IMG/VR virus record: IMGVR_UViG_3300020183_000008
Location: 1 to 64,000 of that record
DNA from: a virus
Reading direction: 5' to 3' (one strand)
DNA: 64,000 bases
Part shown: positions 45,923 through 62,618 of the stretch, piece by piece
How positions within the stretch are numbered: the first letter of the stretch is position 1
Layout: each line of letters starts with the position of its first letter
Translations under genes and position numbers: made by a program
The notes under the pieces: model-generated
What the model was told of the DNA's origin: nothing
Database searches by the model: none
Seen by the model: only the letters and a program-made list of their open reading frames with translations

Positions 45923-46216
45923 GTGTTGGTTTATACTTGTAAAAATAAAGATTGTAAAAAGTACCTGATTAACGGTGATGCACTTTGCAAAGTGATTTCC
46001 GAAAAAGGAGAGGCGTCTCTTGACTTAGAGACAGGTCTCTACACATCCAACGAAAATGAACCTATTTCAGGTCAGGTGCGATGTTTTCACTGTAACAAGC
46101 ACGCCTTGAAAAAAGAAATGTTGTCGCTCGACTGTGAAAAAAGCGAATTGCTGAGGGATCTAGATAACATAGAATCAGAAATTGATAATTTGATGAAGAT
46201 CATGGGGGGTGCATGA
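45923..46216 (+). CDS. Small putative zinc-ribbon protein
   Basis: CKNKDC...CFHC; ATGA overlap with dnaJ. Confidence 0.6.
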   Translation: MLVYTCKNKDCKKYLINGDALCKVISEKGEASLDLETGLYTSNENEPISGQVRCFHCNKHALKKEMLSLDCEKSELLRDLDNIESEIDNLMKIMGGA

Positions 46217-47073
46217 ACCCCTTCGAAATTCTAGGTTTATCCGATGATGTGACACTGGAGCAAATAAAAAAACGCTACAGACAACTGAGTCTGGAACATC
46301 ACCCCGACAGAGGGGGTGACATCGAAAAATTCAGATCAATCACGGATGCTTACTCTTTAATCAACAGTGAGCAAAACTTAAAAAATTACCGTTCTCGAAA
46401 AAATTCTATTTTTTCTTGGGACTCCGATCTTGAATCCTTTTTCGGTGACATGTTCAACGCAAAAAAACCACCTGCTCGCCGCACGATTTACACAGATGTT
46501 TACATTTCTTTCGAAGAATCTTTCACAGGATGCACCAAACATGTTTTTTATCAGGAAGTTAAAACTTGTCGAGCTTGCGGGGGTGTAGGGGCATCATCTT
46601 TTGATCCTCAAGGAAACGTAGTAAAAACATGCAACGATTGTTTAGGAGCCGGGTTTACTAACCAAACTCATCAAGCAGAGTTAAATATACCGCGCAGTGT
46701 CGCGGATGGTCATCAACTTGTAGCCGCTGATGATGTTGTAGCCACAATCCACATCGTTCCTCACGGGGACATGACCCGAAAAGGATTGGATGTGCTATCG
46801 ATGCTAAAGGTTTCTTTAAGAGATGTATTTAATGGAAGCAGGCTGCACCTTCAAACTTTGCATGGTGAAGTCGCATTTGACTTGCCACGGTGTCTCCAAC
46901 CTGACAAGATAATCAGATTAAAGAAAAAGGGATTTTTTGATGTGCGTCGGAACACCTACGGTGACCATTTGTTGACTATAAAACTTGTTATCCCTGAGTT
47001 TTCTGATGAAAATTGTGAAAAGATTGTGAGGTGCTTGGATGAAATCCAAACGAGAGAATCAAAAACTAGCTGA
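46213..47073 (+). CDS. dnaJ: DnaJ-like co-chaperone
   Basis: J domain with HPD, CRACGGVG and CNDCLGAG, C-terminal GDHLL domain. Confidence 0.9.
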   Translation: MNPFEILGLSDDVTLEQIKKRYRQLSLEHHPDRGGDIEKFRSITDAYSLINSEQNLKNYRSRKNSIFSWDSDLESFFGDMFNAKKPPARRTIYTDVYISFEESFTGCTKHVFYQEVKTCRACGGVGASSFDPQGNVVKTCNDCLGAGFTNQTHQAELNIPRSVADGHQLVAADDVVATIHIVPHGDMTRKGLDVLSMLKVSLRDVFNGSRLHLQTLHGEVAFDLPRCLQPDKIIRLKKKGFFDVRRNTYGDHLLTIKLVIPEFSDENCEKIVRCLDEIQTRESKTS

Positions 47074-47596
47074 AGAGCCTCTTTTCGTACAGTTCCTCAA
47101 TTCTAAAATCGACTACAACGCAGTGGATTCTTTTTTACTGCGGCTTGAATCAATATTCCCAGAACACGAAGACAAGAAGATTGTCAAGGAGCATCGTGAA
47201 TCTTTGAAGGATCATCATTTGGAAGGTTACAAACTTGTCCAAACAAAATTCAAGGATCACATCGATTACATTCTCTCGTACAAAAACTTCGATTCAGGAT
47301 TCTCATCATGGGCTAACTTTTATCTGTCTAGCTTGCGAGAAAACAAAAGCGAGGATAAAAAAGGTAACTTAGAACGCAGGGTAAGAATTGGAGACAAGAA
47401 CGGTGATTGGTTTTCAGGCATCTTGCTCTACAACTTTAGTCTTTTTTGCCGTTACTATGGAACAGATTTGATTCGCAGATGTGACTCGAAAGTGTATTTC
47501 GTTACTCGTTCGAAATGGGATAAATATTGTTCAGATGAATGCAAAAAAGCGAAGTCATGTAAATACTCAACATCTTCTGTTAAGGTAGAAACATGA
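47039..47596 (+). CDS. Hypothetical protein with C-terminal Cys motif
   Basis: RRCDSKVYFV...KYCSDEC. Confidence 0.6.
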   Translation: MKSKRENQKLAEEPLFVQFLNSKIDYNAVDSFLLRLESIFPEHEDKKIVKEHRESLKDHHLEGYKLVQTKFKDHIDYILSYKNFDSGFSSWANFYLSSLRENKSEDKKGNLERRVRIGDKNGDWFSGILLYNFSLFCRYYGTDLIRRCDSKVYFVTRSKWDKYCSDECKKAKSCKYSTSSVKVET

Positions 47597-48696
47597 AAGA
47601 ACTGATGATCTATCTAAAAACAACAGAAACCTGCCAATTAAATTGTAACCACTGTTTTACTAGCGGCTCAAAGGGTCGAAAGATATTCTTCGATCCAGAC
47701 AAGGTGATATCTTTTTTACAAAGATTAAACAAAACTTTCCCGTGCATTGAAAACGGAGGTACGATATCTTTTCACGGAGGTGAGCCTCTAATCGCACCTT
47801 TGGAAGATATCAAAAAAGTTTATCGAACTTGTAAAGATTTATGGAACGATCCAAAAAAACCACAATCCAAAGTCGCTTGGACTTTTCAGTCTAACCTTGT
47901 TTTTCCTTTGACGGATGAAAAGATAGAACTTATCGATGAAGTTACAGAGAAAAGACAATTTGGAACATCATGGGATTCAAAGATCCGTTTCCCAACGCTG
48001 AAAGCAGAACAGTTATGGGAAAAAAATGTTCGCACCCTTGTGGACAGAGGTTACCCTGTCACGGTGATGGTTTCTTTATCAAAACATGCGCTTGAAAAAG
48101 AACCAAAAGAAATCATACAAAAAATGATAGACCTAGGTATCAAATTTATAGCTTTTGAAAGAATAACAAACAACGGCAATGCAAAAATAAATGATGGATT
48201 GACCCCATCGAACAGAGATTTAGATGCCTACATGTTAAAAATGTGGGAACAAACACTCAAGTACAACTACCAAGAAAAAATCCACAACATTCTTTTAGAT
48301 GGTGTGGTCACATCTTTTTTAAACTCCGCTCACACAGGAGAAAGATGTCGAAACTGTGAGCAAAAAATATTTACCTTGAACGCTGATGGAACAATATCAG
48401 GATGTCCAAATTCAGCGGTAGAAAAGCCCTACGCTCAAATCGACTGGAAGATTTACGACATAATCTTTAGCAAAGGTCGGATGAAAGAAATCGCATGTGA
48501 AGCTGTGAGAAACCCGTTGTGCGCAACGTGCGAAGTAAGGGACATCTGTAACGGGGATTGTCATCAGCTCGCGTGGGAAGGTGATATTTGTGCAGCACCT
48601 AAAAGTCTGATGAAAAAAATAAAAACAAATTTACATTCAAACGATTATTATCATCAGTACGATGATTTGCAGAGATTTAAGGAGGCATCTTTATGA
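47593..48696 (+). CDS. Radical SAM protein with SPASM-like domain (rSAM-1)
   Basis: CQLNCNHC, FHGGEP, RCRNC...GCPN...CATCEVRDICNGDC...IC. Confidence 0.92.
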   Translation: MKELMIYLKTTETCQLNCNHCFTSGSKGRKIFFDPDKVISFLQRLNKTFPCIENGGTISFHGGEPLIAPLEDIKKVYRTCKDLWNDPKKPQSKVAWTFQSNLVFPLTDEKIELIDEVTEKRQFGTSWDSKIRFPTLKAEQLWEKNVRTLVDRGYPVTVMVSLSKHALEKEPKEIIQKMIDLGIKFIAFERITNNGNAKINDGLTPSNRDLDAYMLKMWEQTLKYNYQEKIHNILLDGVVTSFLNSAHTGERCRNCEQKIFTLNADGTISGCPNSAVEKPYAQIDWKIYDIIFSKGRMKEIACEAVRNPLCATCEVRDICNGDCHQLAWEGDICAAPKSLMKKIKTNLHSNDYYHQYDDLQRFKEASL

Positions 48697-49469
48697 GCGA
48701 AGTAATTACAAAAAGAGTGAAAGCTCCTCTGAGTGTTGATGAAATGAAGGATGCTTTTCTTAATAAAGCCGACAGAGACGCAGGTAAAATCAAATATATC
48801 GTTGATTACGTAAACAGCACTATCAAAGGTGATATTCTCCTTCAATATCTATCAAACCTCGAAATTCAAGCGGATTTTGATTTTACAGGAACATCTAAGC
48901 AAGAGAGATTCGACTTTCTTTTGACTTACTTCAAGATGAAAACAATCATCAAGAATAAAGATCTTAATTATGCTGCGAGTGCAGTCGTACTTCGAAGTAA
49001 AGATTTTTCAGGTGAATTCCTGAAGCAAGACTTTCTGACCAATGAAGAGGTCGATGAATTTTATACTTTGCACAAAAATTTAGTGGATAAATGGTCTTTG
49101 ATTGTTGATTCAAGTCTATTGCTATTGATTAGAGTTTCATCACCTCAAACAAGTTTGGATGCATACGAAGATATTTTGGATCCAAATTACTGCGGTGTTA
49201 ATTTTGTCAATCTTTACAATATTTCAGGTTTCTTCAATATTTTTACATCACGCCCTGCAATAAGTGAATTGAAATGGTTCACACACCAGTTCGAAAATTT
49301 TGCTTTTAATAATCAACTCCTATTCAAAATAATCAGCGATTCTGATGAGAGTTTCTTATCATCTTTTAATATGATGCGAGCGACTTTAAATGAGACTTTC
49401 TCAAAAGAATTTTTAGACCAACTAGATCAAGAATTTGATAAATTAGGAAAAGAAAATGCTATTACCTAA
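48693..49469 (+). CDS. Hypothetical protein in the radical SAM cluster
   Basis: 258 aa, AAGGAGG SD, ATGA overlap. Confidence 0.75.
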   Translation: MSEVITKRVKAPLSVDEMKDAFLNKADRDAGKIKYIVDYVNSTIKGDILLQYLSNLEIQADFDFTGTSKQERFDFLLTYFKMKTIIKNKDLNYAASAVVLRSKDFSGEFLKQDFLTNEEVDEFYTLHKNLVDKWSLIVDSSLLLLIRVSSPQTSLDAYEDILDPNYCGVNFVNLYNISGFFNIFTSRPAISELKWFTHQFENFAFNNQLLFKIISDSDESFLSSFNMMRATLNETFSKEFLDQLDQEFDKLGKENAIT

Positions 49470-49635
49470 AAAACAATATGACGATCGCCTTAAAATATGC
49501 GCATCTTGCCCAAATTACATAAAAGTGCTTGGCATTGGTAGGTGTAAAATTTGCGGTTGCATTATGGCTGTTAAGGCTAAAATATCAGCTACAAAATGCC
49601 CTATCGAAAAATGGGACAAAAAGGGAGAGATGTAA
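49456..49635 (+). CDS. 59-aa Cys-rich small protein (DUF6171-like), not in the ORF track
   Basis: MLLPKKQYDDRLKICASCPNYIKVLGIGRCKICGCIMAVKAKISATKCPIEKWDKKGEM; AGGA SD; TAATG coupling to the next gene. Confidence 0.8.
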   Translation: MLLPKKQYDDRLKICASCPNYIKVLGIGRCKICGCIMAVKAKISATKCPIEKWDKKGEM

Positions 49636-50225
49636 TGGCTACAGTAGGTGCAACCATCACAAGAACTACAATGAAAGATGATGGTAATTCTATACCGAAT
49701 GATCGCAACCCTCGCGCAGTGTGGTTTAGAGAGTCGAATGGAGTTCCTGTCGCTAACCCCCAAGGTGCTTGGAACTATTTCACGCCTGCGACCAACACAG
49801 AAAGATGCGCAGTTTATTTAGGTTATAAAGTAGCTACTTATAGCGAGGCTAACTACGGAGCCGCACAATCCCTCATTACAGCATCCACGATTGTAACAAA
49901 TTTCAGAGAATTAGCTAAAAGATGCACACGGTTTCAATATTTACAACATGGCGCTCAAACCAGGTCTTGTACGACTCGTTTTGACATAAATTTCGGTAAC
50001 CGTATCATAGCTAGAGATGTAGAAAATGCTAGTTTGAATTCCCAGATAGATACAATCACAGGTCCGGCGACCGGATCTATTATTTCAGCATCAGCCTTGA
50101 ATGCTTTTGTGACAAACTTGAATAACAAAGCAGCGGAATCTCTAAATATACAAAATTACTGTGACCACACTTTTTGCCACTGCTCATGTCACTCTAGTTG
50201 TCACGCTAGTCGAGCTCGACGATAG
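49635..50225 (+). CDS. 196-aa protein with C-terminal (C-H-x-S)3-RARR tail; candidate radical SAM substrate
   Basis: Start moved to the ATG at 49635 (AAGGGAG SD, TAATG); ends YCDHTFCHCSCHSSCHASRARR. Confidence 0.8.
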   Translation: MATVGATITRTTMKDDGNSIPNDRNPRAVWFRESNGVPVANPQGAWNYFTPATNTERCAVYLGYKVATYSEANYGAAQSLITASTIVTNFRELAKRCTRFQYLQHGAQTRSCTTRFDINFGNRIIARDVENASLNSQIDTITGPATGSIISASALNAFVTNLNNKAAESLNIQNYCDHTFCHCSCHSSCHASRARR

Positions 50226-50231
50226 GAATTT

Positions 50232-51383
50232 GTGATGAGAAAACCTTCAATTCCCACAATAAAAGATGGGTCGAACAACTATTCGGATTTTCTCGAAGCA
50301 AAATATCAGAGTCCAGTTGATGAAAACTATATCAAAAATCTTTTGAAAAAAAAGATCCCTGATGAAGCTGAAATTGAAGTCAGTCTTTTTCAGATCTGTG
50401 GTTTGAAGTGCGCTTTTTGTTGGCAAGACCACGATGATGCAACGGGTTTAAACTCTATTGTTGATAAATTTGATCCCATCTCCGCATTCGTTCAAAAAAA
50501 CCCATCGAAAAAATTCAATGTCCCTTTGATGGGCGGTGAATTGTTCGAAGATTCCAGAACATCTCAGCATTATGAAGACTACTTTACGCTCATAACAAGG
50601 GTAGATGATTTTGCTAGATCTATTGGCAAAAGAATGAAATGGATTCTGGTATCCAACTTATCTTTCAAAAACGCACAACCGGTTTTAGATTTCACAAATC
50701 GCTTAACAGAAGCAAAAAGTGATTGGTGCCTCAGTAGTTCTTTAGACTTCCACGGTAGACCCGTCGCACATTCGATCGAGACTCTCTGGCATAAAAACAT
50801 CATGCTATTCGAAAATAAAATAGCAACAATCAACATGGTTCTAACAGGACCAACCATCCGACGCTTTTTAAATCATGAAACTGATAGATCCTATTTTGAT
50901 CATCTTTATAATTCAGGTTTTCCTCTATCTTTCGACTACTACACACCGGAATCAAATGCAGCGTTGTTGATCCCATCAGATGAAGAATTACTAAATTTCT
51001 TCATCGAAATAGCGGAAAAATACCCGAAAATGGAACCGATGAGTGACTGGTTGAATAATGAACATAACACCATGAGTTGCCTGAGTCTTAACAAACTCAC
51101 TATTTTACCTAACAATCGCATGGTTACTTGTCGACAGTTGGCTTACAAGCCTGAAGATTTCCAAAATAAAATCCACTACGAAAGTAACGCCAACATAATC
51201 GAATCTTTCATCACAAAAAAAGAATGCTTATCCTGCCCTTACTTCAGTAGATGCGGGTTTTCTTGTTTTGTTTTAGATGACCATGTATATTTTTCCAGAA
51301 AACAAAAACTCAAAGAGTGCCTTTACAAAATGATGTTCAGACATATAGAGGCGAAAAATGGATTTAATAATCAAACCAACTGA
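50232..51383 (+). CDS. Radical SAM protein (rSAM-2)
   Basis: CGLKCAFC, MGGELF, C-terminal CLSCPYFSRCGFSC...EC. Confidence 0.9.
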   Translation: MMRKPSIPTIKDGSNNYSDFLEAKYQSPVDENYIKNLLKKKIPDEAEIEVSLFQICGLKCAFCWQDHDDATGLNSIVDKFDPISAFVQKNPSKKFNVPLMGGELFEDSRTSQHYEDYFTLITRVDDFARSIGKRMKWILVSNLSFKNAQPVLDFTNRLTEAKSDWCLSSSLDFHGRPVAHSIETLWHKNIMLFENKIATINMVLTGPTIRRFLNHETDRSYFDHLYNSGFPLSFDYYTPESNAALLIPSDEELLNFFIEIAEKYPKMEPMSDWLNNEHNTMSCLSLNKLTILPNNRMVTCRQLAYKPEDFQNKIHYESNANIIESFITKKECLSCPYFSRCGFSCFVLDDHVYFSRKQKLKECLYKMMFRHIEAKNGFNNQTN

Positions 51384-52413
51384 GGTTTGCAATTTCGCTT
51401 GCACTTTTTGCAGCTCGACAAAAATAGCAGATCGTAAAAATCAAGTTTTAGACTTAAATCTCATTTTTGATTTTCTCAAGAGATTCCCTCAAACCAACAC
51501 AATCATCGTGAACGGAGGGGATCCCTTAGTTATAAATCCAAGTTATTATTGGAAAATAATCGAATACCTTGACCAAAACGACCTTCCTGCAATTATTAGT
51601 TTTACGACAAACCTTTGGGATTTTTACAAAAAACCTGAAAAATGGCTAGATTTGTTTAGAAACTACAGACGGCTACAAGTCGCCACATCATTCAATTACG
51701 GTGATACCCGAAGAATTTCAAAAAACAGGGTTTTCACAGAAGATGATTTTTGGAAAATTAGTGACTTGATGAAAGAACTCGTTGGGTATCGACCTGGTTT
51801 CATTTCAGTCATCACTGAAGAAAACGAGGATACAGCGATTGATAATGTTCGACTCGCCAAAAAAATGGGTGTTGAGTGTAAACTAAATTACGCTATGGCT
51901 TCAGGTGCCCAAAACAAGCCTTTTTTACTTTCCAAAATTTATAAAATTTACCTTCAAATTTACAGGCAAGGTTTAGCACCTTGGGAATTCAATACCAAAC
52001 AAATGACTGCACGTTTGAAAGATGTCCCAACTGTATGCCCACTAAATAGAAATTGCGATTCAGGGATTCGATGCCTTCAACCGAACGGAGCGTACCATTC
52101 TTGCGGAGCGTTCGGAGATGACAATTTCGAAGACAACAAAAAATACGAGATCGATTTCAAGAAAGAAGTTTATGAAAAGCAATTTTTCTTACCGTTGAAA
52201 CAGGACTATACGATTCAAAGAATGAAAGACGAATGCCTCACTTGCCCCATGTTTAAGATATGTAACGGTTGCCATAAGACAATCAAGGACTACAAAAATC
52301 TAAATCTCGTGGAAGAGCATTGCTCTTTGATGAAAGAAATAGCACCTGAGATTATAGAAACTAAACTTTTTGCACCAGATATTGTTAAACAAATAGCTGA
52401 ATTACCATTATGA
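51358..52413 (+). CDS. Radical SAM protein with SPASM-like domain (rSAM-3)
   Basis: KPTEVCNFACTFC, NGGDPL, CPLNRNC...SCG...CLTCPMFKICNGC...HC. Confidence 0.92.
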   Translation: MDLIIKPTEVCNFACTFCSSTKIADRKNQVLDLNLIFDFLKRFPQTNTIIVNGGDPLVINPSYYWKIIEYLDQNDLPAIISFTTNLWDFYKKPEKWLDLFRNYRRLQVATSFNYGDTRRISKNRVFTEDDFWKISDLMKELVGYRPGFISVITEENEDTAIDNVRLAKKMGVECKLNYAMASGAQNKPFLLSKIYKIYLQIYRQGLAPWEFNTKQMTARLKDVPTVCPLNRNCDSGIRCLQPNGAYHSCGAFGDDNFEDNKKYEIDFKKEVYEKQFFLPLKQDYTIQRMKDECLTCPMFKICNGCHKTIKDYKNLNLVEEHCSLMKEIAPEIIETKLFAPDIVKQIAELPL

Positions 52414-53333
52414 ACATATCATTAAACCCTAGCTACCTTTGTAATTTGCGATGTGAATTCTGCTATCTAGGTGAAAAATTAGGTGACCCTAAGCGCATCG
52501 ACCTTCAGGTGTTGGATCAGAGACTCGCGGCTGTTAACGAAATTTCAAAAATCGAACAAATTGACCTGTACGGTGGTGAAATTCTTATACTACCCGATGA
52601 TTACTTGAGACAGCTTATGAATGTGATAAAAAATCACTATCAAGGGTCAATAAATTTAATAACAAATCTTACAAAAATGAAAAGATGGTTTATCGAGAGA
52701 GATGATATTGAATTATCAGTTTCTTTTGATTTCGAAGCTAGATCCGCTTTTCAAAATACTTTAAATAATTTGATGACACTCAAAAAGCCTGTGTCGATAT
52801 TGATGCTCGCATCACCTAAATTGATGAGTTTAGATTTTGAAGAAATGCTAAATATTCTAAATCGAATACCTTGCATCCAATCCGTAGAGATAAAGCCTTA
52901 CTCATCGAATCAATACAACCAACTCGAAACAAAATTCTCTGAATACGAAAGTTTTGTAAAGAAATTTGTTGTTGCTTTCGAAACAGAGAAACTCAAGCCT
53001 TTCTTAACGAACGTGCAGTATATCCAAGATTCCATCAGCCTTGAAAGAAATGCTTTTTCCGACAATCATATCTACATAACACCATCTGGAAAATTCGGTG
53101 TATTAGAATTCGATGATAAAGACCATGAATTTTTCTTAGAATTAGATTCTCTCGATGACTATTACGCTTGGGCAACAAAAGAAAAAATGAAAATCAAAAA
53201 CAATTATTTTTGTTCTGAATGCAAATGGCAAGGGCATTGCCTTACAGAGCACTACAGAGAAGTCAAAGATATTACCCATTCATGCAATGGATTCAAACAC
53301 CTGTTGGAGTGGTATGAAAATGCGGGAACATAA
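52410..53333 (+). CDS. Radical SAM protein (rSAM-4)
   Basis: CNLRCEFC, YGGEI, C-terminal CSECKWQGHCLTEH...SCNG. Confidence 0.9.
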   Translation: MNISLNPSYLCNLRCEFCYLGEKLGDPKRIDLQVLDQRLAAVNEISKIEQIDLYGGEILILPDDYLRQLMNVIKNHYQGSINLITNLTKMKRWFIERDDIELSVSFDFEARSAFQNTLNNLMTLKKPVSILMLASPKLMSLDFEEMLNILNRIPCIQSVEIKPYSSNQYNQLETKFSEYESFVKKFVVAFETEKLKPFLTNVQYIQDSISLERNAFSDNHIYITPSGKFGVLEFDDKDHEFFLELDSLDDYYAWATKEKMKIKNNYFCSECKWQGHCLTEHYREVKDITHSCNGFKHLLEWYENAGT

Positions 53334-53853
53334 AATTAGACAAGCGTTGTATCACAAAATAGCAAATCTCGATGACATACTCGATGATGTAGAAAAGCTA
53401 GAGCCTGTCGTATATCGAGAGAATGAGTCCGACAGAGATACAGCCCTCACCATCATCAGATATTTCCGTGAGGAAATCAGAGAACTTATCTACCCAGCTA
53501 AACCGTTCGTAGTGGCTCTCGTTTACGCGTGTCTTTTAGAAAGACACTTTTGTGAGCCTTTTTATGAATCGATATCCGACCCTGATTTGCTACATGGAAA
53601 TGATAAATGGTTCAAACCGTATTGTGATGAAACCAAAGACATTTACGACCATGCAATTTTTCATCTAGGGGCTGAATTGGATTTCATCGTTAGTGATGAA
53701 TTACAATACATACCTTCACAAATCAGGTCGACTATTGAATATTTCAAAAAAGAATTTTTAATTGAAACTAACTACTTACCTGTGCTGCCGAATCCACCTT
53801 CACCTCTGTCCGACTCATCTAATTCAGACACAACGGTGAAATCTAAATCATAG
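53314..53853 (+). CDS. Hypothetical protein in the radical SAM cluster
   Basis: Start placed at the ATG at 53314 after GGAGTGGT; acidic, LIYPAKPF and DPDLL..ND motifs. Confidence 0.7.
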   Translation: MKMREHKIRQALYHKIANLDDILDDVEKLEPVVYRENESDRDTALTIIRYFREEIRELIYPAKPFVVALVYACLLERHFCEPFYESISDPDLLHGNDKWFKPYCDETKDIYDHAIFHLGAELDFIVSDELQYIPSQIRSTIEYFKKEFLIETNYLPVLPNPPSPLSDSSNSDTTVKSKS

Positions 53854-54203
53854 TCTTTGACAAGTTTGATCTGACCAATTCTTTCACCGATATAAAATGG
53901 TTGCGCATCTTCTCTCACACGGCGAAATCTGTATTCAATTTCACCCCGATATGAATGGTCGATTACACCCACTGAATTTGCAAGAATCCAGCCAGTTTTT
54001 GAAATAGATGAGCGAGGGAAAGCCAGAAAGCTATAACCCTCAGGTGGTTGAACAGCGATTCCTGTTTTGACTCTTAAAAATTCAGGAGTCTCTTCTACGA
54101 TATCTGCAAAAACATCCCACGCAGCATCATCGCTATGAGCACGTTTAGGAGGCAGAGAACTACCCCGAAGCAATTTTACTTTGACTTGAAATTTTGAAGA
54201 CAT
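53772..54203 (-). CDS. dut: Trimeric dUTPase
   Basis: AAWD, PRSS, GVIDHSYRGEI, RIGQI, RGEGGFGSTG. Confidence 0.95.
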   Translation of the reverse strand: MSSKFQVKVKLLRGSSLPPKRAHSDDAAWDVFADIVEETPEFLRVKTGIAVQPPEGYSFLAFPRSSISKTGWILANSVGVIDHSYRGEIEYRFRRVREDAQPFYIGERIGQIKLVKDYDLDFTVVSELDESDRGEGGFGSTGK

Positions 54204-54235
54204 CTGTAACCCCCTCTGATGTGCTAGAATAACTT

Positions 54236-54841
54236 ATGCTAAACGATTTTTTCCGTAAAGGCTTTTACACAAATTGTTTAGAAAAAACACATTGTGATGA
54301 AATGCTACACATAGTCCAGTCCATAAATTTTATAGAAAGCCTAGATTACAGAGATGTTGGTTACAAACCACCTCTTATTGCTGAATGGGATGATATCGAT
54401 GATCCCATCGTGTCTGCTCATAACTGCCAAGAAAACTTGAAAAAGTATTGGTTAAAATTCAAAGAATACCTAAAACCTTTAGAAAATATAGCGGGTAGAT
54501 TCGACTCCGGTTCTGTAATTGTCAATAACTTCCCAAAAGGTCACGGTATGAATTGGCATTCAGACACGGTTGACACAGCGTTTGTGCAAATGCTCATATA
54601 TTTGTCAAAAGATTATTTTGACAAAGATGATGGGGGTTATTTGCAAATAGGTGATAGTTTTATCCTACCTAATCATGCTACGATGGTCATTATGAACAAT
54701 ATCTCACCTACAATGTTACATAGGGTAGAGCCGCTCATCACAGAAAAAGAGCGATTGACCGTTGTCTTTCGATACGGGTACATGAACAACACCCTTACAA
54801 AAAAAAGGCTTCTCACCATGAAAGGTGAAATCCGTGATTGA
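54236..54841 (+). CDS. 2OG-Fe(II) oxygenase
   Basis: WHSD (HxD), IYLS...DGGYL, LHRVEP, ERLT. Confidence 0.85.
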   Translation: MLNDFFRKGFYTNCLEKTHCDEMLHIVQSINFIESLDYRDVGYKPPLIAEWDDIDDPIVSAHNCQENLKKYWLKFKEYLKPLENIAGRFDSGSVIVNNFPKGHGMNWHSDTVDTAFVQMLIYLSKDYFDKDDGGYLQIGDSFILPNHATMVIMNNISPTMLHRVEPLITEKERLTVVFRYGYMNNTLTKKRLLTMKGEIRD

Positions 54842-55439
54842 ATTGGATCTCACAAGTTACTTTCACAAAGGCTACACCGTTACCGATTTAGGATCGGATG
54901 TCGATGGAATCCTAGCTGATATGAGAAATCAAAATTGGGTTGAAAAAGATGACCTTTTGAAACCGGATTGGGACAATCATTCACATCTCAATAAAGCTAC
55001 TGATTATCTTTATGATGCTGTCAGAGATTTCTCTCAGTCCGGCTATTATTCGTGGTTCACGAAAATTTACGGTGGATTTACGCAGCGAACCATCATGGCG
55101 AGAAAATGGACAGGTCAAAGCACGAACTGGTTCAACGAATCTCGTCTAGGGGCATTCAACGCAAATATTCTCTTTCTCGGTAAAGGTGACCCGACCGTAA
55201 GCCTTCAAATCGGACAAGCCGATTGTGATGAAAATGGTCGAATCGAAGGTGTGATTGAGAATGTTTCAACAATTCACCCTAAACACGGAACACTGGTTAC
55301 CTTGTACAACATAAACCCTTGCGTTGTTCGAAGATTTTTGAACGAAGAAAACACAGGGGAATGGTATACTCTGCATTTCTATCTTGGATTTATTGAAAAC
55401 ACTCTGTTGAGAGAGGTTTCAGGTGTTCCACTTATTTAA
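54825..55439 (+). CDS. Degenerate 2OG-oxygenase-fold paralog
   Basis: Shares YFHKGYT, PKHGTLV..N and GFIENTL with the upstream gene, but has WFNE in place of WHSD and no distal His. Confidence 0.6.
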   Translation: MKSVIELDLTSYFHKGYTVTDLGSDVDGILADMRNQNWVEKDDLLKPDWDNHSHLNKATDYLYDAVRDFSQSGYYSWFTKIYGGFTQRTIMARKWTGQSTNWFNESRLGAFNANILFLGKGDPTVSLQIGQADCDENGRIEGVIENVSTIHPKHGTLVTLYNINPCVVRRFLNEENTGEWYTLHFYLGFIENTLLREVSGVPLI

Positions 55440-56364
55440 AAATACCTATCTCGACATTCAGGGTACATCCAATCCGACCGGTTTTAAGGCACTCTCAACT
55501 GATAATTTCACGATCAAAGATGTAGCTGCTTTAAAAAGTAACGAAAAAATAATTTATTCTGTACCGAAATTTACTTTCACAAAAATTGTGATCGAATACA
55601 TTAAAGAATTGTTCCCTAGTGCATACCCACCGTTGATCATGGAAATTTACGGGATTGTTATGGCGAGAATGACCTATCAGCTCGCCTACCTCACGGATAA
55701 TCAAACAAGAAACACTTATATTGATTGTAATCTTCCATCGGATTCAATAAAAGTTCTGTTGGAAATAACAAAATATAAAGGTTTATTTGAAGGTGATTTC
55801 AAAAGACATGTTGGTATAGAATGGTTACTTTGTGATTATTTCAATGATGGGATTTATTCAGATGAATTTCAAAAAAGATTTCGAGAACTTTTGGTAAAAA
55901 ATATTGTTTACTCGGTTCAAGAGATAAAACATGAAATGTTGTATAAAGTTTTTAATCTTCCGAAAATGTACTTGAACTATAACAACGTAGAAGAATTGTT
56001 TTCAAAAGATATCGGAGTCCAATTCTTATTCGACCCTAGCCTAAACAACGCGACTCACCTTATGACTCGATATAAGATCGAAGACATAGCGGATTTGTTT
56101 CATACATTTACCAAAATGTATAACAAGGGGTACGACAAAGCCAAATACCAAGAAATGACTCTTTTAAGTCTTTTCCTACTCAAAGCGATCTCTTGTTTAA
56201 AATCAGGGAATTGCGATGCGATGATGAAAGAAGAAATACAAAGAGATTTCTCTATTATTTTTGGACATCATCGATTCATGAGAAAAATCAATTGTCTTTT
56301 GATAGATTGGATTTACCAACAAAAAAGGCAAAAAAATAAAGAACTTGAAGTATTAATTCTTTAA
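55423..56364 (+). CDS. Hypothetical protein
   Basis: 313-aa ORF (MFHLFKNTYL), overlaps the upstream gene. Confidence 0.7.
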   Translation: MFHLFKNTYLDIQGTSNPTGFKALSTDNFTIKDVAALKSNEKIIYSVPKFTFTKIVIEYIKELFPSAYPPLIMEIYGIVMARMTYQLAYLTDNQTRNTYIDCNLPSDSIKVLLEITKYKGLFEGDFKRHVGIEWLLCDYFNDGIYSDEFQKRFRELLVKNIVYSVQEIKHEMLYKVFNLPKMYLNYNNVEELFSKDIGVQFLFDPSLNNATHLMTRYKIEDIADLFHTFTKMYNKGYDKAKYQEMTLLSLFLLKAISCLKSGNCDAMMKEEIQRDFSIIFGHHRFMRKINCLLIDWIYQQKRQKNKELEVLIL

Positions 56365-56979
56365 CTTTAATAATTTCGCAGGCACACCCACATAAACACC
56401 TGCTTGTGATAAGTCGGAAACGACTGCGCTTTGTGCACCTGTCGATACATCATCCGCGATCACGATTTCCTCGCGGATCGCCGTCCCTGTACCTAAAGTC
56501 ACATTCTTGCCAACAATTACATTACCTGAAACATGAGTGCCAGGATTAACGGTAACAAAATCACGCAAAACAGAATCATGCCCTACAGTGCAACTGATGT
56601 TTAAAACAACGTAGTCACCTATCGAGACATTTGTCGTTACGATGCAATTTGGAGCAATTATACCACCCACACCCAAAATAGCATCCTGAACTAAAGATTT
56701 GGGGTGGACATAGGTAGGTGCCGGTTTCAAACCAACTGAAAGAGCCTTTTCCACCATAACTCTTTTAGCGTTAGGACTTCCTATTCCGATGATAAATAAA
56801 TGCACACCGTATTCAGTAAAATCCCAATTTTTAACCACAGGATAAACTCTATTATTGAGTTTTAGTTCAGAGGTATCTGTAACATCATCTACAAAAATAA
56901 AGTCGGTGTATTGACCTTGTAAATGCCAATACACCTCTCGCGCTAAACCACCTGCACCTAGTATTACAATCTTGCTCAT
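56353..56979 (-). CDS. Sugar acetyltransferase, NeuD/PglD-like (hexapeptide left-handed beta-helix)
   Basis: ILGAGGLAREV, IGIGSP..KR, VHP, VGHDSV, GVPAK. Confidence 0.9.
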   Translation of the reverse strand: MSKIVILGAGGLAREVYWHLQGQYTDFIFVDDVTDTSELKLNNRVYPVVKNWDFTEYGVHLFIIGIGSPNAKRVMVEKALSVGLKPAPTYVHPKSLVQDAILGVGGIIAPNCIVTTNVSIGDYVVLNISCTVGHDSVLRDFVTVNPGTHVSGNVIVGKNVTLGTGTAIREEIVIADDVSTGAQSAVVSDLSQAGVYVGVPAKLLKLKN

Positions 56980-57014: not shown

Positions 57015-58370
57015 TCAGGCGTACCTTGCGGTGTTCGCAAGTTGAGCAACATCTGAAAAGAGGGCATAACGAGCGAAATTCAAACTATAAAGAGAAAAAT
57101 TGTCAAACCAGACCGTACCGGGATTCACATCCACAGCAATAACAGCGCGAACGAATCTAGCGTTTGCGGGGAATTGGTTGACGCTTCCCCCTTCATTACG
57201 GCAAAGATTTTGCGAATAACCATCAGCAAAAGTTGTCGCCGTAAAAGTAGTGCTGTTTAGCAACCAATATTCCTGATTCGCCGCAGGAGTGATATAATTC
57301 AAATCCTTATCATAAAAACGGCACCCTACACGAATGGTGCCTGTGCCACCGTTCACGCGAGTTTGAACTACACCACCAATCCCTTGAGTGGGGGATGCTG
57401 GGAAATGAGACCTAGCGTGAACATTCGAAAGAGAACCATCGCTAACATTTAAGGTATCTACTGTCGCTTCCCAAATGCCTGTGCCAGTAATCGAATACGT
57501 TCCAAAACCCATTGCAGAAGTAGATGAACTATCAAATGAAAGAGTTCCTGAACCTGAAACTCTTCTCCAAAAATTCACGCACGCTTGCTTGTTCGCCCAA
57601 TTTATTGGAGTGAGCGTAAAAGGGGTATTTGTTACGACTTGAGTGAAATTTAAATAAATAGTTGTTGTAGAAATCGCATGACCTACTGTGACAACATAAC
57701 CGTTCAAAGGACGCACGTTTGTAATCGCACCGGCTGTCGTGCTTAAAAAATAATTTTGACCTGCGTTCAAACCAGTCGTAGGAGCAAGACCTGAGAAATA
57801 AACATCCCCTGTGCTACCTGAAACATTCTGAATCATACCGAGAGCGAATTGGTTTACACTCGTAGCACCTACAGGAACGTATGCACCTGCTCCAGACAAA
57901 GCAGTGGGATCCCATCTTACGATTTGTCCATTGGAACAACCCGATTGAGATTGAGAACGACGAATATCAGGATTTGCTTCTTCAGTACGAAGATTTACAA
58001 GAAGGGTCGTCTCGTTCAAAGCAACACCAACGGTAATTACCAATCCATGCTCAGGTCTTGTTGATGTGATAGATCCAGCGGAAGACTGACTGAGATAATA
58101 AATAGTTCCCGCTACAAGTCCGGAATACCCCGTAATTCGACCATCTTGTACGATCAAATCACCCGTACCACCATTTACGTTGACAACAACACCTGCGGCT
58201 TGCGCGTTCGTGAAATTGTTAGCTTGCGCAGGTACATAGGCAGAACCATTAAATCGAACAACTTGCCCGCTAGTCACACCAGAAATGGGTACATCCAACA
58301 AGTACGCTGTATTTACGCGCTCGTCATCACCTCTAACCCAGTATATTGTACTTCTCGGAATCCGTGGCAT
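57015..58370 (-). CDS. Virion structural protein with two tandem beta-domains and a C-terminal CBM-like domain
   Basis: GLVAGTIYYLS...AGSITSTRP / GLNAGQNYFLS..AGAITNVRP; VWFDNFSL; downstream of the baseplate genes. Confidence 0.65.
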   Translation of the reverse strand: MPRIPRSTIYWVRGDDERVNTAYLLDVPISGVTSGQVVRFNGSAYVPAQANNFTNAQAAGVVVNVNGGTGDLIVQDGRITGYSGLVAGTIYYLSQSSAGSITSTRPEHGLVITVGVALNETTLLVNLRTEEANPDIRRSQSQSGCSNGQIVRWDPTALSGAGAYVPVGATSVNQFALGMIQNVSGSTGDVYFSGLAPTTGLNAGQNYFLSTTAGAITNVRPLNGYVVTVGHAISTTTIYLNFTQVVTNTPFTLTPINWANKQACVNFWRRVSGSGTLSFDSSSTSAMGFGTYSITGTGIWEATVDTLNVSDGSLSNVHARSHFPASPTQGIGGVVQTRVNGGTGTIRVGCRFYDKDLNYITPAANQEYWLLNSTTFTATTFADGYSQNLCRNEGGSVNQFPANARFVRAVIAVDVNPGTVWFDNFSLYSLNFARYALFSDVAQLANTARYA

Positions 58371-58395
58371 AAAAACCTCAATTATTAGGCATTTA

Positions 58396-60432
58396 TCAAA
58401 TTGTATTGCAGGTCACAGAAACGGATCCCAAAAGAGGTAACCCTGTCATATAATCTTTGTGCCCCGCTGGACCGTTATTCACAACACCCCCTTGAGCCAA
58501 ACTTCCAATTTTAACCAAAGGAGCATTCAACTCAATTTGTAATGCTTTCAAACTCAATCTTAATGCAGATAAGTTCATTACCCCAGCGAGAGTCGAAATC
58601 GTTACATTTCCAACCAAAGTTTTCAAATCTATGTTCCCTACACCCACCTGAACTTTGAAATTACCCACACCAATTTTAGTTTCTCGCTTACCGAGAAGAA
58701 TATCTTCGGTGATGGTACCTGCTAACATTTTCGTTTTTTTACTACCTAAGAGCATTTCTAGTTCTTTATTACCTAATAGAATTCTCTCGAAATCAGCAGT
58801 CGTACTACCTTTCGTTACGTTCGGGCTTGCAATCACCACCCTCCTACCAAAACCGATGTTGGTCTGTTGGTCGAGAGTGATGTTTTCACGCAACCCACCA
58901 CCGTAATTGTTGCTTTTATCTTCAACAAAGTTGTCTACTTTTTTACCCAAGACACGATGCTCTAGTTTACCATTTACTTGAACAATTTCATCGCCTCGTA
59001 TTTCAGTATACCGACTACCCTCGATGACCATATCTACGTTGCCCGCTAAACGTATTCTAGCTGCATTTCTTTGTGTATCTGTACCTGCAACCTCAAGATT
59101 CAAACCTTTTTCTAACAACAAGTCGAGAGATCTACTGCGGGTACTTTCCGCACCGAAACGCATCCGTACACCACCCTCGGTATCCAACAACAGGCTCCGA
59201 CCATCTGATGATTGTTTTCCGATAACCATCTTCAGTGAACCGAGTAAACCTATGTTCGCTGATCTTCCTGAGCCCATAGGATAGATCGCGGAAGACCTGT
59301 CTAATGAAAACTCTAGTACGCCCTCTTTGTTAAACGACAAACTTGTTTTTGTGTTCGGTAGTTTTACTTGAAAAGCAGTTGCTTGTTTTTCATCACCGTT
59401 GATACCGTTTGAAGTTTCGACAGGTATATCATCGGTGATTATGTCTTTTCTATTGTCAGAAGAAAACACAACGGATCTTAAAATTTTTCCGTATTTGTAT
59501 TTCCCTTCTTTGGAAATGGGATCGTTCCCTACCAAAGTACCGAGAGAAAAAGATACTAAAGGTTTTTTTACAATTCCATCTTTGTCGGATCCTGAACCTG
59601 AAATCAAAGGATCTTGGTTTGAATAAACAGATTCTTCAGGCGCACCTACGCTATCATCAGCGGTTTCTAATAAATCAAGTCTAAACTCAGTGAATGATTT
59701 TACTCCCGCAGCTCCGTATGGAGACTCACCATAAGGAAAGTTGAGATGCTTCGGTGAATTTGTAACTCTGAAAAACTTTCTTCCATCTGCAAGATATCGA
59801 ACAGCAGGGTTAAATTGATTTGAGAACTCAGGATGATCGATCAACTCATTTCTATGGATTAAACCAAAATTTAAGCGCCCTGCTTTTGAATTCAAAGTTT
59901 GATTTACAGCAAGAAACGACATCACGTTTGAAAAACTGTCGAGATTTATTTCATTAAAACTAGAATCTTGGAGGAAAATAGACCTGTCTATGCGAACATC
60001 AGAACCATGTTTAGATGAAATCAGAAACTCACCTGGATATAGCTTCCACTGCTTTAATCGTGAAAGAAGCCGCAAATTATCAGCATCCGAGATATTCGTG
60101 CTGCGTAACCTAAAAGGGTCAAAAAGATAAGAAAAATAAGGAGAAACGGGCAGGAATCCCTCAACAATCGGCAGACCCTCACCAACCGTATTATGCATGT
60201 AAGAAACAATCGCGATTGAACCTTCAGTAGGCATACCTCCCATAAAGGAACCTACAAAAGAATTCATGTTCGAGAAAGGCACGGCTGTGCTGAAAGCATC
60301 CGCATCCAAAAAACGAATATCAACGGTCATCCTAAAATAGTCTACCCGAATGACCTCAGCGTATCTTTTTCTTTGTGAATCTACTTTATTTTTGAAATTG
60401 GAATAAGGTTTTCTATCAAACTTAGACATCAA
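58396..60432 (-). CDS. Baseplate central spike (gp5/gpV/VgrG-like)
   Basis: N-terminal OB-like AEVIRVD...MPTEGSIAIV; C-terminal beta-helix-like repeats (IEGSRYTEIRGDEIVQVNG). Confidence 0.65.
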   Translation of the reverse strand: MMSKFDRKPYSNFKNKVDSQRKRYAEVIRVDYFRMTVDIRFLDADAFSTAVPFSNMNSFVGSFMGGMPTEGSIAIVSYMHNTVGEGLPIVEGFLPVSPYFSYLFDPFRLRSTNISDADNLRLLSRLKQWKLYPGEFLISSKHGSDVRIDRSIFLQDSSFNEINLDSFSNVMSFLAVNQTLNSKAGRLNFGLIHRNELIDHPEFSNQFNPAVRYLADGRKFFRVTNSPKHLNFPYGESPYGAAGVKSFTEFRLDLLETADDSVGAPEESVYSNQDPLISGSGSDKDGIVKKPLVSFSLGTLVGNDPISKEGKYKYGKILRSVVFSSDNRKDIITDDIPVETSNGINGDEKQATAFQVKLPNTKTSLSFNKEGVLEFSLDRSSAIYPMGSGRSANIGLLGSLKMVIGKQSSDGRSLLLDTEGGVRMRFGAESTRSRSLDLLLEKGLNLEVAGTDTQRNAARIRLAGNVDMVIEGSRYTEIRGDEIVQVNGKLEHRVLGKKVDNFVEDKSNNYGGGLRENITLDQQTNIGFGRRVVIASPNVTKGSTTADFERILLGNKELEMLLGSKKTKMLAGTITEDILLGKRETKIGVGNFKVQVGVGNIDLKTLVGNVTISTLAGVMNLSALRLSLKALQIELNAPLVKIGSLAQGGVVNNGPAGHKDYMTGLPLLGSVSVTCNTI

Positions 60433-62618
60433 TTTTTACCTTTTCCAGAAGTATTGTTCTTCGCAGATGAGGGGGATGCGTTAGCTATTGTACCTGATTT
60501 GTCTCTACTAGATTTATTTTTAGTCTTCGTTGGAGATGGTACATCTTTTCTTTCCGCAGTCGGAGTCATGTTAGAGAGTTTTCTTGTAATTGTTAATCTT
60601 TGATTTGATGTATCTAAATTCAAAGAAGTTTTCTTAGGCTGAATCTGACCTTTTGAATCTAGTAGAAGATTTGATCCATAAGATATAACACCAACTAAAT
60701 CATAACCATCGGTGTCAGTGATGGGTTGAACCCCTGAGTTGAAAAAATCTCCATCAGAAGTTCTAGCTTTAGTCACTTGTCTTCTTTGGTTCATTTTCGT
60801 GCCTGTGCCCTTGATTTTATTGGCACTTTCTAAGGACTGCTTTTCGTTTGATAACTCATCATAATCTAGCTTATTTAACTGCGCTTGATTTGATGTCGTG
60901 CTCGGTCTCATGACCATGTTAGGACCGTACGGGCTTTTATATCGGAACGCTTCTAATGTAAGAGTCGTTCTCGCTGAACTACCGAAAGATAAGCTATGGC
61001 TAATTCCAGTGACATACGCGAAACAATTTTTCTCTTCGAAATAAATAGGGTAACCCAATTTTATCTCTGGAGTCAGAGGAATAGTAATTGAACCTGTCAT
61101 TCTTCTTGCATTGTGTCTATCCATTTCGTTCTGAGCGTATATTGCAAGAAGTTTTGATTGGTCAGACTCTTTAAATGAACCCACCATCTGTAAATCAGTT
61201 GTTTGCGCTCGAATACCGTATTTTTCAGCTAGTCGAGCATCAAAAGCGACACCGACATGTTGAATCTCTCCCGCTGTAGAAAATTCTTGCGTCAAAGATC
61301 CACGTACCGAAAAAAGCGTGAAAACATCATCCGATTCATCAATAGAGAAATCAAATATATCTTCATCTTTAATAACAAAAGGTCTATATGCTCGAACATC
61401 GATGTTGAAAAAAGGAGGCTTAAATACTATTTGACCATCGAGAGACATATAAAATTCATAGCCGATGTAATCTTTACAGGTTGTCGCGATGTCAAATAAT
61501 GAACTGAAAGATGAATTATCGACGGTATCAATATCAGCTATTTGACCATAAGGTGCAGCATTATCGATGAGTTGCTGCATCATCCTATCCAACCCAGAGT
61601 TATCAAAAGATGTTGATACTGATGCATCGACCGCATCATCGACATCTCTTAAACTCTGTGAAATAGATGATGCACCTTCAGTGCCTAGAACAACTGATTG
61701 AGACTTACTGTCTTTTCTGCTTTCAAGCTGAATGTTTGCCGATCGAAACTCAGATGCGTTTACTTTATCCTGAGGGTCTAAACGATTTTTTTGTTTGTTT
61801 AATTGTTCACCTCGGCTACCCTTATAACCAAAAATGATCAAATCAATAAAATTCGTATCATTGTTTTGGTCTAACCCAAACCTCTTAGTCCAATAATCAG
61901 CCAAAATATCATTCTGAAGATTTACCAAATCTTTTTTTGAAATTGGTTCATAGGTAGTAGACCTAAGAGCGCCGGTAAAAGATATTGTATTGAATGTTTC
62001 TGGGACGAAAGCTGCATTTATTGGAGTACCATCAGGAGATTTTCTTTGACCCCCGAACGCAAAATTGACTATCTCTTTGATAATTTCTTTTGGATTTTTT
62101 TTCTTAAAAACACCCACATACGGAACTGATGCAGCCCCCGTGTTTTCCATAGCCAAAACACTAGGACGTAAATTCATTTTTGTTATCTGCATCCAATAAA
62201 GCATATCAACACACTGAATTGAAAGAGTGTGTGTTTCACCTGAATAACTTTCATTGACAGACCTAACTATACCATGAAACTGCTGATAAGGTGGGGGTAA
62301 TTCAAGAACACCAGAAGAATTGACCGTGTGGAATCGACCTTTTAAGAAAATCTTAACTTCCATCATAGGTTTTATGATCGTTTGACCATCGGAAAAATAC
62401 TTTGAATACTCGCTTCTAGGCACTGATATTTCAAAAGACGCTGATGCAGGTGGAGCATCCACGTTTCCATTGATAGATAAGTTTGTTATATCATCGTTGA
62501 AATTTACACGCTCACCTTTTGAAGACTCAATATAACTTAACTGATTGATTAAAATGAAACCATCTGGCGCATATCTTTGCACTATCTTATGGGTATAAGT
62601 TTGCTTCAGATGTTTCAT
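60429..62618 (-). CDS. Baseplate hub-like protein (gp27/gpD-like)
   Basis: IKPMMEVKIF, YEFYMSLDGQIVFKPPFFN, KYGIR, PEIKLGYPI, YVTGISHSLSFG...TTLTL. Confidence 0.7.
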   Translation of the reverse strand: MKHLKQTYTHKIVQRYAPDGFILINQLSYIESSKGERVNFNDDITNLSINGNVDAPPASASFEISVPRSEYSKYFSDGQTIIKPMMEVKIFLKGRFHTVNSSGVLELPPPYQQFHGIVRSVNESYSGETHTLSIQCVDMLYWMQITKMNLRPSVLAMENTGAASVPYVGVFKKKNPKEIIKEIVNFAFGGQRKSPDGTPINAAFVPETFNTISFTGALRSTTYEPISKKDLVNLQNDILADYWTKRFGLDQNNDTNFIDLIIFGYKGSRGEQLNKQKNRLDPQDKVNASEFRSANIQLESRKDSKSQSVVLGTEGASSISQSLRDVDDAVDASVSTSFDNSGLDRMMQQLIDNAAPYGQIADIDTVDNSSFSSLFDIATTCKDYIGYEFYMSLDGQIVFKPPFFNIDVRAYRPFVIKDEDIFDFSIDESDDVFTLFSVRGSLTQEFSTAGEIQHVGVAFDARLAEKYGIRAQTTDLQMVGSFKESDQSKLLAIYAQNEMDRHNARRMTGSITIPLTPEIKLGYPIYFEEKNCFAYVTGISHSLSFGSSARTTLTLEAFRYKSPYGPNMVMRPSTTSNQAQLNKLDYDELSNEKQSLESANKIKGTGTKMNQRRQVTKARTSDGDFFNSGVQPITDTDGYDLVGVISYGSNLLLDSKGQIQPKKTSLNLDTSNQRLTITRKLSNMTPTAERKDVPSPTKTKNKSSRDKSGTIANASPSSAKNNTSGKGKN

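Follow-up and report, generated by a model that had tools for sequence, protein, structure and literature searches.

To our knowledge, the chemistry of radical S-adenosylmethionine (rSAM) enzymes with a SPASM domain is known to act on whole proteins in few cases, namely, sulfatases, an amine dehydrogenase subunit, and HxsA. In the HXS antiphage system, HxsA is a full-size protein with HxS repeats that occurs with two rSAM enzymes (HxsB and HxsC) and HxsD, and its SHRSS motif carries a modification of +8 Da (PMC13128918; Li et al., Nat Commun 2026). Three further groups of SPASM enzymes are relevant here. The anaerobic sulfatase-maturating enzyme (anSME; TIGR03942, PDB 4K36-4K39) is short and has no leader-recognition domain, and its target is a short Cys motif in a folded protein. 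Triceptide maturases (XyeB, GrrM/OscB, FxsB, and YhhB) link an aromatic residue to the beta-carbon two places on, and ranthipeptide and sactipeptide maturases (PapB and CteB) and QhpD make Cys thioethers, in the case of QhpD on a protein subunit. We analyzed the first 64,000 nucleotides of IMG/VR virus record IMGVR_UViG_3300020183_000008 (the window), in which the plus-strand stretch 47593-53853 encodes four paralogous rSAM enzymes (rSAM1 to rSAM4), two helper proteins of unknown fold, and a 196-aa protein, here called the tail protein, that ends in a (Cys-His-x-Ser)3-Arg-Ala-Arg-Arg tail. We propose, with a probability of about 0.6, that this is a jumbo-phage protein-maturation cassette in which the rSAM enzymes act on a particle protein and modify its Cys/His tail.

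We searched viral contigs and species genomes with a degenerate DNA pattern for (CHxS)3-RxRR followed by a stop codon. At least 119 viral contigs matched, as did 22 contigs among 185,579 species genomes, 12 of them from metagenome-assembled genomes of Bdellovibrionota (predatory Bdellovibrio-like bacteria); the two scans together yielded 143 distinct tail proteins. Because a DNA-pattern search favors the exact motif, we added a profile search, which returned a family of 868 clusters at 50% identity (E ≤0.001); among the 150 best representatives of the family, 136 have a (C-H-x-x)3-R-x-R-R end. The tail motif recurs far beyond chance. Its Cys and His residues are fixed; the fourth repeat position is Ser in 80 to 94% and otherwise Asn, Ala, or Asp, the third is mostly Gly or Ser and rarely Pro or Ala, and a Gly stands between the arginines in 100 of the 136. 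The bodies of these proteins align homologously over their whole length with a mean column identity of 18%, 12 tail positions are invariant, and the body is free of Cys in 107 of the 143 pattern-derived proteins. Two forms were seen, a long one of about 170 to 300 aa and a short one of about 125 to 145 aa that occurs as a tandem pair.

The protein in the window belongs to this phage family, part of which is covered by phrog_35144, on the basis of its homologous body, its tail, and an adjacent rSAM1-type gene, and it matched 102 loci in a phmmer search. Neither a near-identical DNA search nor tblastn of the protein against cultured phages gave a match, the bodies being too diverged. Its tail is an unusual variant: the Ala of RARR occurs in 2 of the 143 pattern-derived and none of the 136 profile-derived proteins, and there is a Cys inside the first repeat (CHCS) as well as an extra C-D-H-T-F ahead of it. 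Other members vary in their own ways. P0087 (461 aa) is a fused relative with a glycine-rich domain (PF21722) before the tail-protein body and a canonical CHASCHSSCHSSRGRR end, and P0239 and P0259 carry a fourth CHxS repeat and have GDGPGxGGGV at the end where others have RxRR. Further relatives terminate with CHGSI or CHGSL, and an arginine end is therefore not shared by all members. In Pseudomonas phage pPa_SNUABM_DT01 (L148:10025-10561), whose cassette has six rSAM genes, the tail reads CHTSCHTSCHSARGRR, with Ala in place of Ser in the last repeat.

Next to the recurrence of the motif, we found that gene order ties the tail protein tightly to the four rSAM families across phage lineages with little else in common, a linkage that the sequence-only reading from which this analysis started had proposed to check. 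The same gene set and tail are present in Agrobacterium phage Atu_ph07 (gp172 to gp164), Sinorhizobium phage Phosso, the RSL2/RSF1/FLC/SURPRISE13 group, and pPa_SNUABM_DT01. In long-form loci, the gene directly upstream of the tail gene, overlapping or abutting it, is rSAM1 in 61 of the 72 loci with room, and the one directly downstream is that of the helper phrog_20767 in 60 of 75. Where 7 kb or more of downstream sequence was available, 11 of 12 loci had all four rSAM types. The window is unusual in that the order of helper and tail gene is reversed relative to the family. The members conserved across loci are rSAM1 to rSAM4, phrog_20767, phrog_20737, 2-oxoglutarate (2OG) oxygenases, and a 313-aa protein. 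Among them, phrog_20767 is as widespread as rSAM1 (83 loci), phrog_20737 was found in 19 viral loci and also in Bdellovibrionota loci, the 2OG genes in 8, and the 313-aa protein in 6. Some Bdellovibrionota contigs of 299 kb to 1.29 Mb carry the full cassette, and the set is thus not confined to phages; its linkage spans T4-like, phiKZ-like, and bacterial settings that otherwise share little. In cultured phages, the cassette adjoins genes for baseplate, spike, or giant virion proteins. We found no paper on the tail or the cassette in the literature; phage genome papers list only radical SAM, iron-sulfur oxidoreductase, cupin, or 2OG genes.

All four enzymes matched phrog_1802 (E-values of 1e-32 to 5e-56) and have the conserved CxxxCxxC motif of the radical SAM superfamily, as the sequence-only reading had it. 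Pfam PF04055 scored above its cut-off for rSAM3 (43.7) and rSAM4 (32.2) and just under it for rSAM1 (25.5 versus 29.5), with no match for rSAM2. To assess Cys conservation, we aligned each enzyme with 36 to 72 orthologs. The extra C-terminal Cys clusters that had been noted in each enzyme proved to be conserved, with 7 or 8 Cys kept in rSAM1, rSAM2, and rSAM3 (a SPASM pattern), though with only 4 in rSAM4. We compared these Cys with the SPASM layout (TIGR04085), Cx9-15Gx4C ... Cx2Cx5Cx3C ... C, in which seven Cys hold two auxiliary clusters. rSAM1 has the exact pattern (C255-x10-G266-x4-C271, C310/C313/C319/C323, and C333) and one extra upstream Cys, and rSAM2 and rSAM3 have at least seven conserved Cys in the same layout. 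rSAM4 lacks the seven, and its four Cys suffice for one auxiliary cluster. The TIGR04085 model itself gave scores of 26.8, 19.7, and 16.4 bits versus a cut-off of 27. In rSAM1, rSAM3, and rSAM4, the radical SAM motif starts at residues 11 to 14, which leaves no room for an N-terminal leader- or peptide-recognition domain.

When profiles of rSAM1 and rSAM3 were compared with solved structures, the best full-length relative of both was anSME 4K36, matched over the full length (2.9e-5 and 5e-6, respectively); profiles were required, as single-sequence PDB searches with the two enzymes gave nothing useful. Matches to NCBIfam were weak only, the best being to the SPASM maturases DarE, anSME, PapB, GrrM, and DynA, each well short of its curated cut-off. 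These maturase matches span the full length of the enzymes, whereas matches to MoaA, QueE, and NrdG are restricted to the N-terminal cluster-binding stretch, so that a grouping with nucleotide or cofactor enzymes was not found. The most conserved paralog is rSAM3, which is 53 to 57% identical to homologs in cultured jumbo phages (tblastn). Judged by sequence, rSAM1 to rSAM4 are SPASM enzymes of a minimal, protein-modifying build that stand outside every named family.

The cassette resembles HXS in that a full-size protein with short His-x-Ser repeats occurs with more than one rSAM enzyme and a small helper, and in that the HXS modification maps to the repeat beside basic residues. Unlike in HXS, where the period is 3, the repeats here have a period of 4 and an invariant leading Cys, and three of them stand at the very C terminus, followed by RxRR. 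A peptidoglycan-binding domain is absent from the tail protein, which has no HxsA family match either, and there are four rSAM paralogs, none at the HxsB or HxsC cut-off. Moreover, HXS is a bacterial defense system, whereas the cassette is phage encoded and a homolog of its tail protein ends up in virions. With the Hxs models (TIGR03976-03979), HxsC scored 24.6 bits for rSAM3 and 19.1 bits for rSAM4 versus a cut-off of 267.9, and no match of any gene to HxsA, HxsB, or HxsD was listed in NCBIfam. By analogy, the cassette would work like Hxs without belonging to that system.

The likeness to anSME lies in the short rSAM/SPASM build, the lack of a leader-recognition domain, and the proposed action on a folded protein at a short Cys motif; the sulfatase motif that anSME recognizes is C/S-x-P/A-x-R, and the last repeat in the window, C-H-A-S-R, even fits C-x-A-x-R literally. 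Unlike with anSME, there are four enzymes and three repeats here, and the third position, in which Pro and Ala are rare, is mostly Gly or Ser; the anSME score was 44.5 bits versus a cut-off of 349, and no sulfatase gene was found. Triceptide maturases are likewise SPASM enzymes, and H-x-S, H-x-N, and H-x-A all fit their aromatic-x-x pattern. Their matches to rSAM1 were weak (3e-9 to 7e-4), with scores of 16 to 36 bits versus cut-offs of 310 to 450; an H-x-S core is present in the sequence, and their substrates, unlike the tail protein, are short, leader-bearing peptides without an invariant Cys. PapB, CteB, and QhpD share the SPASM build and make Cys thioethers, but PapB scored 37 bits versus 340 and QhpD 17.5 versus 453, and the locus has no acidic acceptor in the tail and no RiPP recognition element (RRE) domain. 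The term RiPP-like (from RiPP, a peptide made on ribosomes and then modified posttranslationally), which the sequence-only reading had used, does not apply in its classical sense: the precursors are folded proteins of 120 to 300 aa, no leader-recognition (RRE/PqqD-like) domain is present, and no protease or peptidase was found among the cassette genes by Pfam, NCBIfam, or PHROG matches. Its proposal of a full-size protein rather than a short peptide as the candidate substrate agrees with the folded, conserved body.

The structure model of the tail protein (predicted local distance difference test [pLDDT] of 70) consists of a pair of long helices, a beta-hairpin, and a last strand leading into a poorly defined tail. 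Foldseek returned nothing in the PDB at E ≤0.001, the best Z score in the VIA wide search was 4.2, and fold matches in BFVD were confined to the protein's own family, including Atu_ph07 gp170. The helper phrog_20767 was modeled confidently as an alpha/beta protein (pLDDT of 88). Its fold had no match in the PDB and no usable match in the Atlas, and the best VIA match (Z of 4.7) covered residues 1 to 67 only. Conservation in this protein falls on hydrophobic or aromatic residues and not on a Cys, His, or acidic set of the catalytic type, and we therefore read phrog_20767 as a binding or scaffolding helper and not as an enzyme. VIA rows for ChlB, anSME, and CteB (Z of 3.3 to 3.9) had hinted at a decayed rSAM paralog; this was rejected, as hhalign against the four rSAM families gave a probability below 1%. 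Complex prediction for the tail protein with phrog_20767 scored 0.37 versus 0.00 for the best control, which is weak support. Of 80 solved complexes, 58 reached this mark, as did 2 of 110 mismatched pairs; at scores of 0.60 or less, just 7 of the 80 solved complexes passed, along with both mismatches. The runs for this pair shared at least 14% of contacts, and the pLDDT of the partner was at least 71.

A virion role, one of two that the sequence-only reading had considered for the tail protein, is supported by published proteomics. Purified virions of Atu_ph07 include gp170, for which Table S5 of the paper lists a mass of 31.89 kDa, 8 unique peptides, and a coverage of 35% (PMC6102473). We computed a mass of 31,894 Da for the tail homolog of this phage, which identifies it as gp170. 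The rSAM enzymes gp171, gp168, gp165, and gp164 and the phrog_20767 homolog gp169 are not in the virion list (PMC6102473). Furthermore, gp170 peaks in gel band 1, otherwise the peak band for proteins of 75 to 139 kDa; proteins of 25 to 35 kDa mostly peak in bands 7 and 8, some of them lower (PMC6102473). The presence of gp170 in band 1 is consistent with a covalently linked form of high mass. No second virion proteome containing the tail protein was found in the SURPRISE13 and FLC6 papers; the RP31 paper has a virion proteome, but rSAM1 and rSAM3 matched no RP12 or RP31 record. The other proposed role, that of an anti-host effector, found no support.

Under the maturation reading, four rSAM enzymes, three of them with full SPASM domains and one with a single auxiliary cluster, would act on the (Cys-His-x-Ser)3-Arg-x-Arg-Arg tail, each probably performing a different step. 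The putatively nonenzymatic helpers phrog_20767 and phrog_20737 and the 2OG-type oxygenases would assist, and the folded body of the 196-aa protein would serve as a handle in place of a leader peptide. The product would be covalent Cys/His cross-links, of the thioether kind, of the triceptide kind (aromatic ring to beta-carbon), or both, that might make the end of the protein stiffer, anchor it, or load it with metal before the finished tail protein is built into the virus particle. The fourth repeat position always has a beta-methylene, which, together with the fixed Cys and His, is compatible with thioether links, His-to-beta-carbon links, or both. The maturation of HxsA by two rSAM enzymes is a precedent for such a scheme (PMC13128918). 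A more far-reaching version, which we hold only tentatively, is that in phages and Bdellovibrio-like bacteria alike, the four-enzyme set builds a new Cys/His cross-link network or a metal-binding cofactor at the C terminus of a particle protein and so covalently staples or arms a cell-attacking apparatus. If true, it would be the first case in which enzymes cross-link a component of a virus particle by radical chemistry.

Several observations weigh against tail maturation. None of the four rSAM enzymes scored high enough in NCBIfam to be placed in a named maturase family at its curated cut-off, which leaves no known enzyme from which the chemistry could be transferred. The presence of Asn, Ala, or Asp at the fourth repeat position in a minority of tails means that Ser is not strictly required, the tail segment was modeled with low confidence (pLDDT of 56 to 60), and in the short tandem form, the rSAM genes lie 5 to 9 kb off or beyond the fetched DNA. 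As the loading buffer described for the Atu_ph07 gel names no reducing agent (PMC6102473), the high-mass migration of gp170 could be due to ordinary disulfides via its three Cys. Finally, the Cys/His run could simply be a metal site.

This last point leads to the rival that survives best, which we nevertheless consider unlikely: the tail, with three Cys and three His, only binds metal (Zn, Fe, or Cu) or serves as a redox site in particle assembly, and the rSAM enzymes act elsewhere, on another virion protein, a collagen-like fiber, or a small molecule, being neighbors through late expression. Runs of Cys and His commonly bind metals, and the tail alone is predicted to be disordered. A separate target for the enzymes would agree with the nonadjacent rSAM genes of the short tandem form, and a collagen-like open reading frame (ORF) of more than 6,593 aa in the window is a possible other substrate. 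The overlap or abutment of rSAM1 and the tail gene in most long-form loci argues for a direct relation instead, as does a linkage that holds across T4-like, phiKZ-like, and bacterial settings; in addition, neither the conserved Arg-x-Arg-Arg end nor the small fourth residue is needed by a plain metal site. We find it still harder to accept, and regard as improbable, a true RiPP or cofactor pathway in which the body serves as an outsized leader, with release of the modified tail as a small peptide or redox cofactor, as with mycofactocin or PQQ. In MftA, the modified segment is at the extreme C terminus, and rSAM3 weakly matches the mycofactocin maturase (1e-5), but the cassette has no recognizable protease or peptidase, its enzymes have no leader-recognition domain, and the body is a conserved folded protein with a homolog in virions. 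Very improbable is a role of the rSAM enzymes in nucleotide or DNA modification with an unrelated tail protein, for although a dUTPase gene lies nearby on the opposite strand and a phage rSAM isomerase modifying DNA is known from M6 (PMC8989533), M6 gp53 is like spore photoproduct lyase and not SPASM (PMC8989533), the dUTPase is in none of the related loci, the MoaA, QueE, and NrdG matches are N-terminal only, and no 5-hydroxymethyldeoxyuridine kinase or transferase genes were seen.

The record of which the window is the first 64 kb has a length of 155 kb and a completeness of 35% by CheckV, which makes the phage a jumbo phage. No second tail gene and no further rSAM3-type genes were found in the 155-kb record. 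On the plus strand, positions 45923-53853 form a continuous gene run in which neighbors overlap by 1 to 47 nt or stand 6 nt apart, confirming the tightly coupled operon that had been described, with all genes placed as in that description. The run begins with a small Cys-rich protein, followed by DnaJ, the 185-aa protein, rSAM1, phrog_20767, the DUF6171 protein, the tail protein, rSAM2 to rSAM4, and phrog_20737 (Table 1). The start of the tail gene has a GGGAGAG ribosome-binding site 5 nt 5' of its ATG, which shares one base with the preceding stop codon. A dUTPase gene on the minus strand overlaps the 3' end of phrog_20737 by 82 nt and cuts the plus-strand run in two; after this break come the 2OG oxygenase, its degenerate paralog, and the 313-aa protein, with which the series ends at 56364. 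The T4-type late promoter TATAAATA had a single match in the 64 kb, equal to chance expectation.

Table 1. Genes and sequence features of the cassette region and other parts of the window
Feature	Position	Strand	Evidence
Collagen-like ORF	2-19780	-	Pfam Collagen, 2,062 bits
DnaJ-like co-chaperone	46213..47073	+	J domain with HPD, one CxxCxGxG pair, DnaJ C-terminal domain; Pfam DnaJ 49.8 bits, DnaJ_C 73.4 bits
185-aa protein	47039..47596	+	No Pfam, NCBIfam, or PHROG match
rSAM1	47593..48696	+	C14/C18/C21; Cys 252, 255, 271, 310, 313, 319, 323, 333; phrog_1802 4.5e-56
phrog_20767 helper, 258 aa	48693..49469	+	phrog_20767 1.3e-32
DUF6171 four-Cys microprotein, 59 aa	49456..49635	+	PF19668 31.6 bits versus cut-off of 27
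Tail protein, 196 aa, candidate substrate	49635..50225	+	Folded body and Cys/His tail; homolog of Atu_ph07 gp170
C-terminal motif YCDHTF-CHCS-CHSS-CHAS-RARR	50157..50222 (stop to 50225)	+	Conserved 16 residues at 50175-50222
rSAM2	50232..51383	+	C56/C60/C63; Cys 283, 300, 332, 335, 341, 345, 363; phrog_1802 1.2e-32; no Pfam match
rSAM3	51358..52413	+	C11/C15/C18 and SPASM-type Cys; Pfam Radical_SAM 43.7 bits
rSAM4	52410..53333	+	C11/C15/C18; Cys 268, 271, 277, 292; Pfam 32.2 bits; phrog_1802 1.1e-36
phrog_20737 accessory protein, 188 aa	53287..53853	+	phrog_20737 2e-23
dUTPase	53772-54203	-	Opposite-strand gene
2OG-Fe(II) oxygenase, P4H-like	54236..54841	+	PF13640 29.5 bits versus cut-off of 27
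Diverged 2OG paralog	54825..55439	+	BLASTP 2e-8 versus neighboring 2OG gene; no Pfam match
313-aa protein	55423..56364	+	phmmer matches in 6 loci, including RSF1 (L027) at 1.2e-5
PglD-like acetyltransferase	56353-56979	-	PglD_N and hexapeptide repeats
Four large genes	57015-63937	-	No family matches

The sequence-only reading, which we regard as partly supported as a whole, had also included the flanking genes in the cluster. Its Cys-rich microprotein is the DUF6171 protein, above the Pfam cut-off, and no homolog of at least 50 aa was found in related loci; nor was one found there for the 185-aa protein or the dUTPase, and all three are specific to this phage. At the place of the 185-aa protein, ahead of rSAM1, SURPRISE13 and pPa_SNUABM_DT01 have a cupin, and none is present in the cassette of the window. 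DnaJ was ruled out as a cassette member, with no homolog in 120 related loci; it, the 185-aa protein, and the microprotein are absent from the conserved set. The DnaJ gene, which encodes one zinc center and not two, heads an operon of four multi-iron-sulfur-cluster enzymes, and its product may help fold or load them; no related cassette has a DnaJ. Of the two 2OG-fold proteins that had been proposed, one stands and the other is a diverged paralog in which WHSD has become WFNE and the distal His is replaced by Arg in the alignment. Because the residues of the His-x-Asp...His iron site are replaced, this paralog is probably inactive. 2OG genes also lie inside the SURPRISE13 and pPa_SNUABM_DT01 cassettes, and the 313-aa protein is related to the gene after the tail gene in RSF1-type phages.

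Elsewhere in the window, the collagen-like ORF is cut by the contig end and consists almost entirely of Gly-x-y repeats. Its DNA has an 18-nt repeat period over 18.6 kb, 54% GC compared with 38% elsewhere, and strong strand skews, and it probably encodes a giant hair or fiber protein. The PglD-like gene, which lies between the cassette and tail-like genes and encodes a left-handed beta-helix acetyltransferase, hints at sugar modification. Two of the four large genes that follow resemble tail and tail-fiber proteins from Tunturiibacter phage Tunturi_5 and an uncultured phage of 485 kb, with 24 to 32% identity.

A fixed set of four enzymes tracks one 16-residue tail across hundreds of phage lineages and as far as predatory bacteria, which points to a conserved and chemically demanding finishing step of a particle protein. 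The conserved tail is a defined candidate substrate for in vitro work. Solving the cassette would probably yield new enzyme chemistry on Cys and His, and it would explain the abundance of iron-sulfur enzymes in large marine and soil phages.

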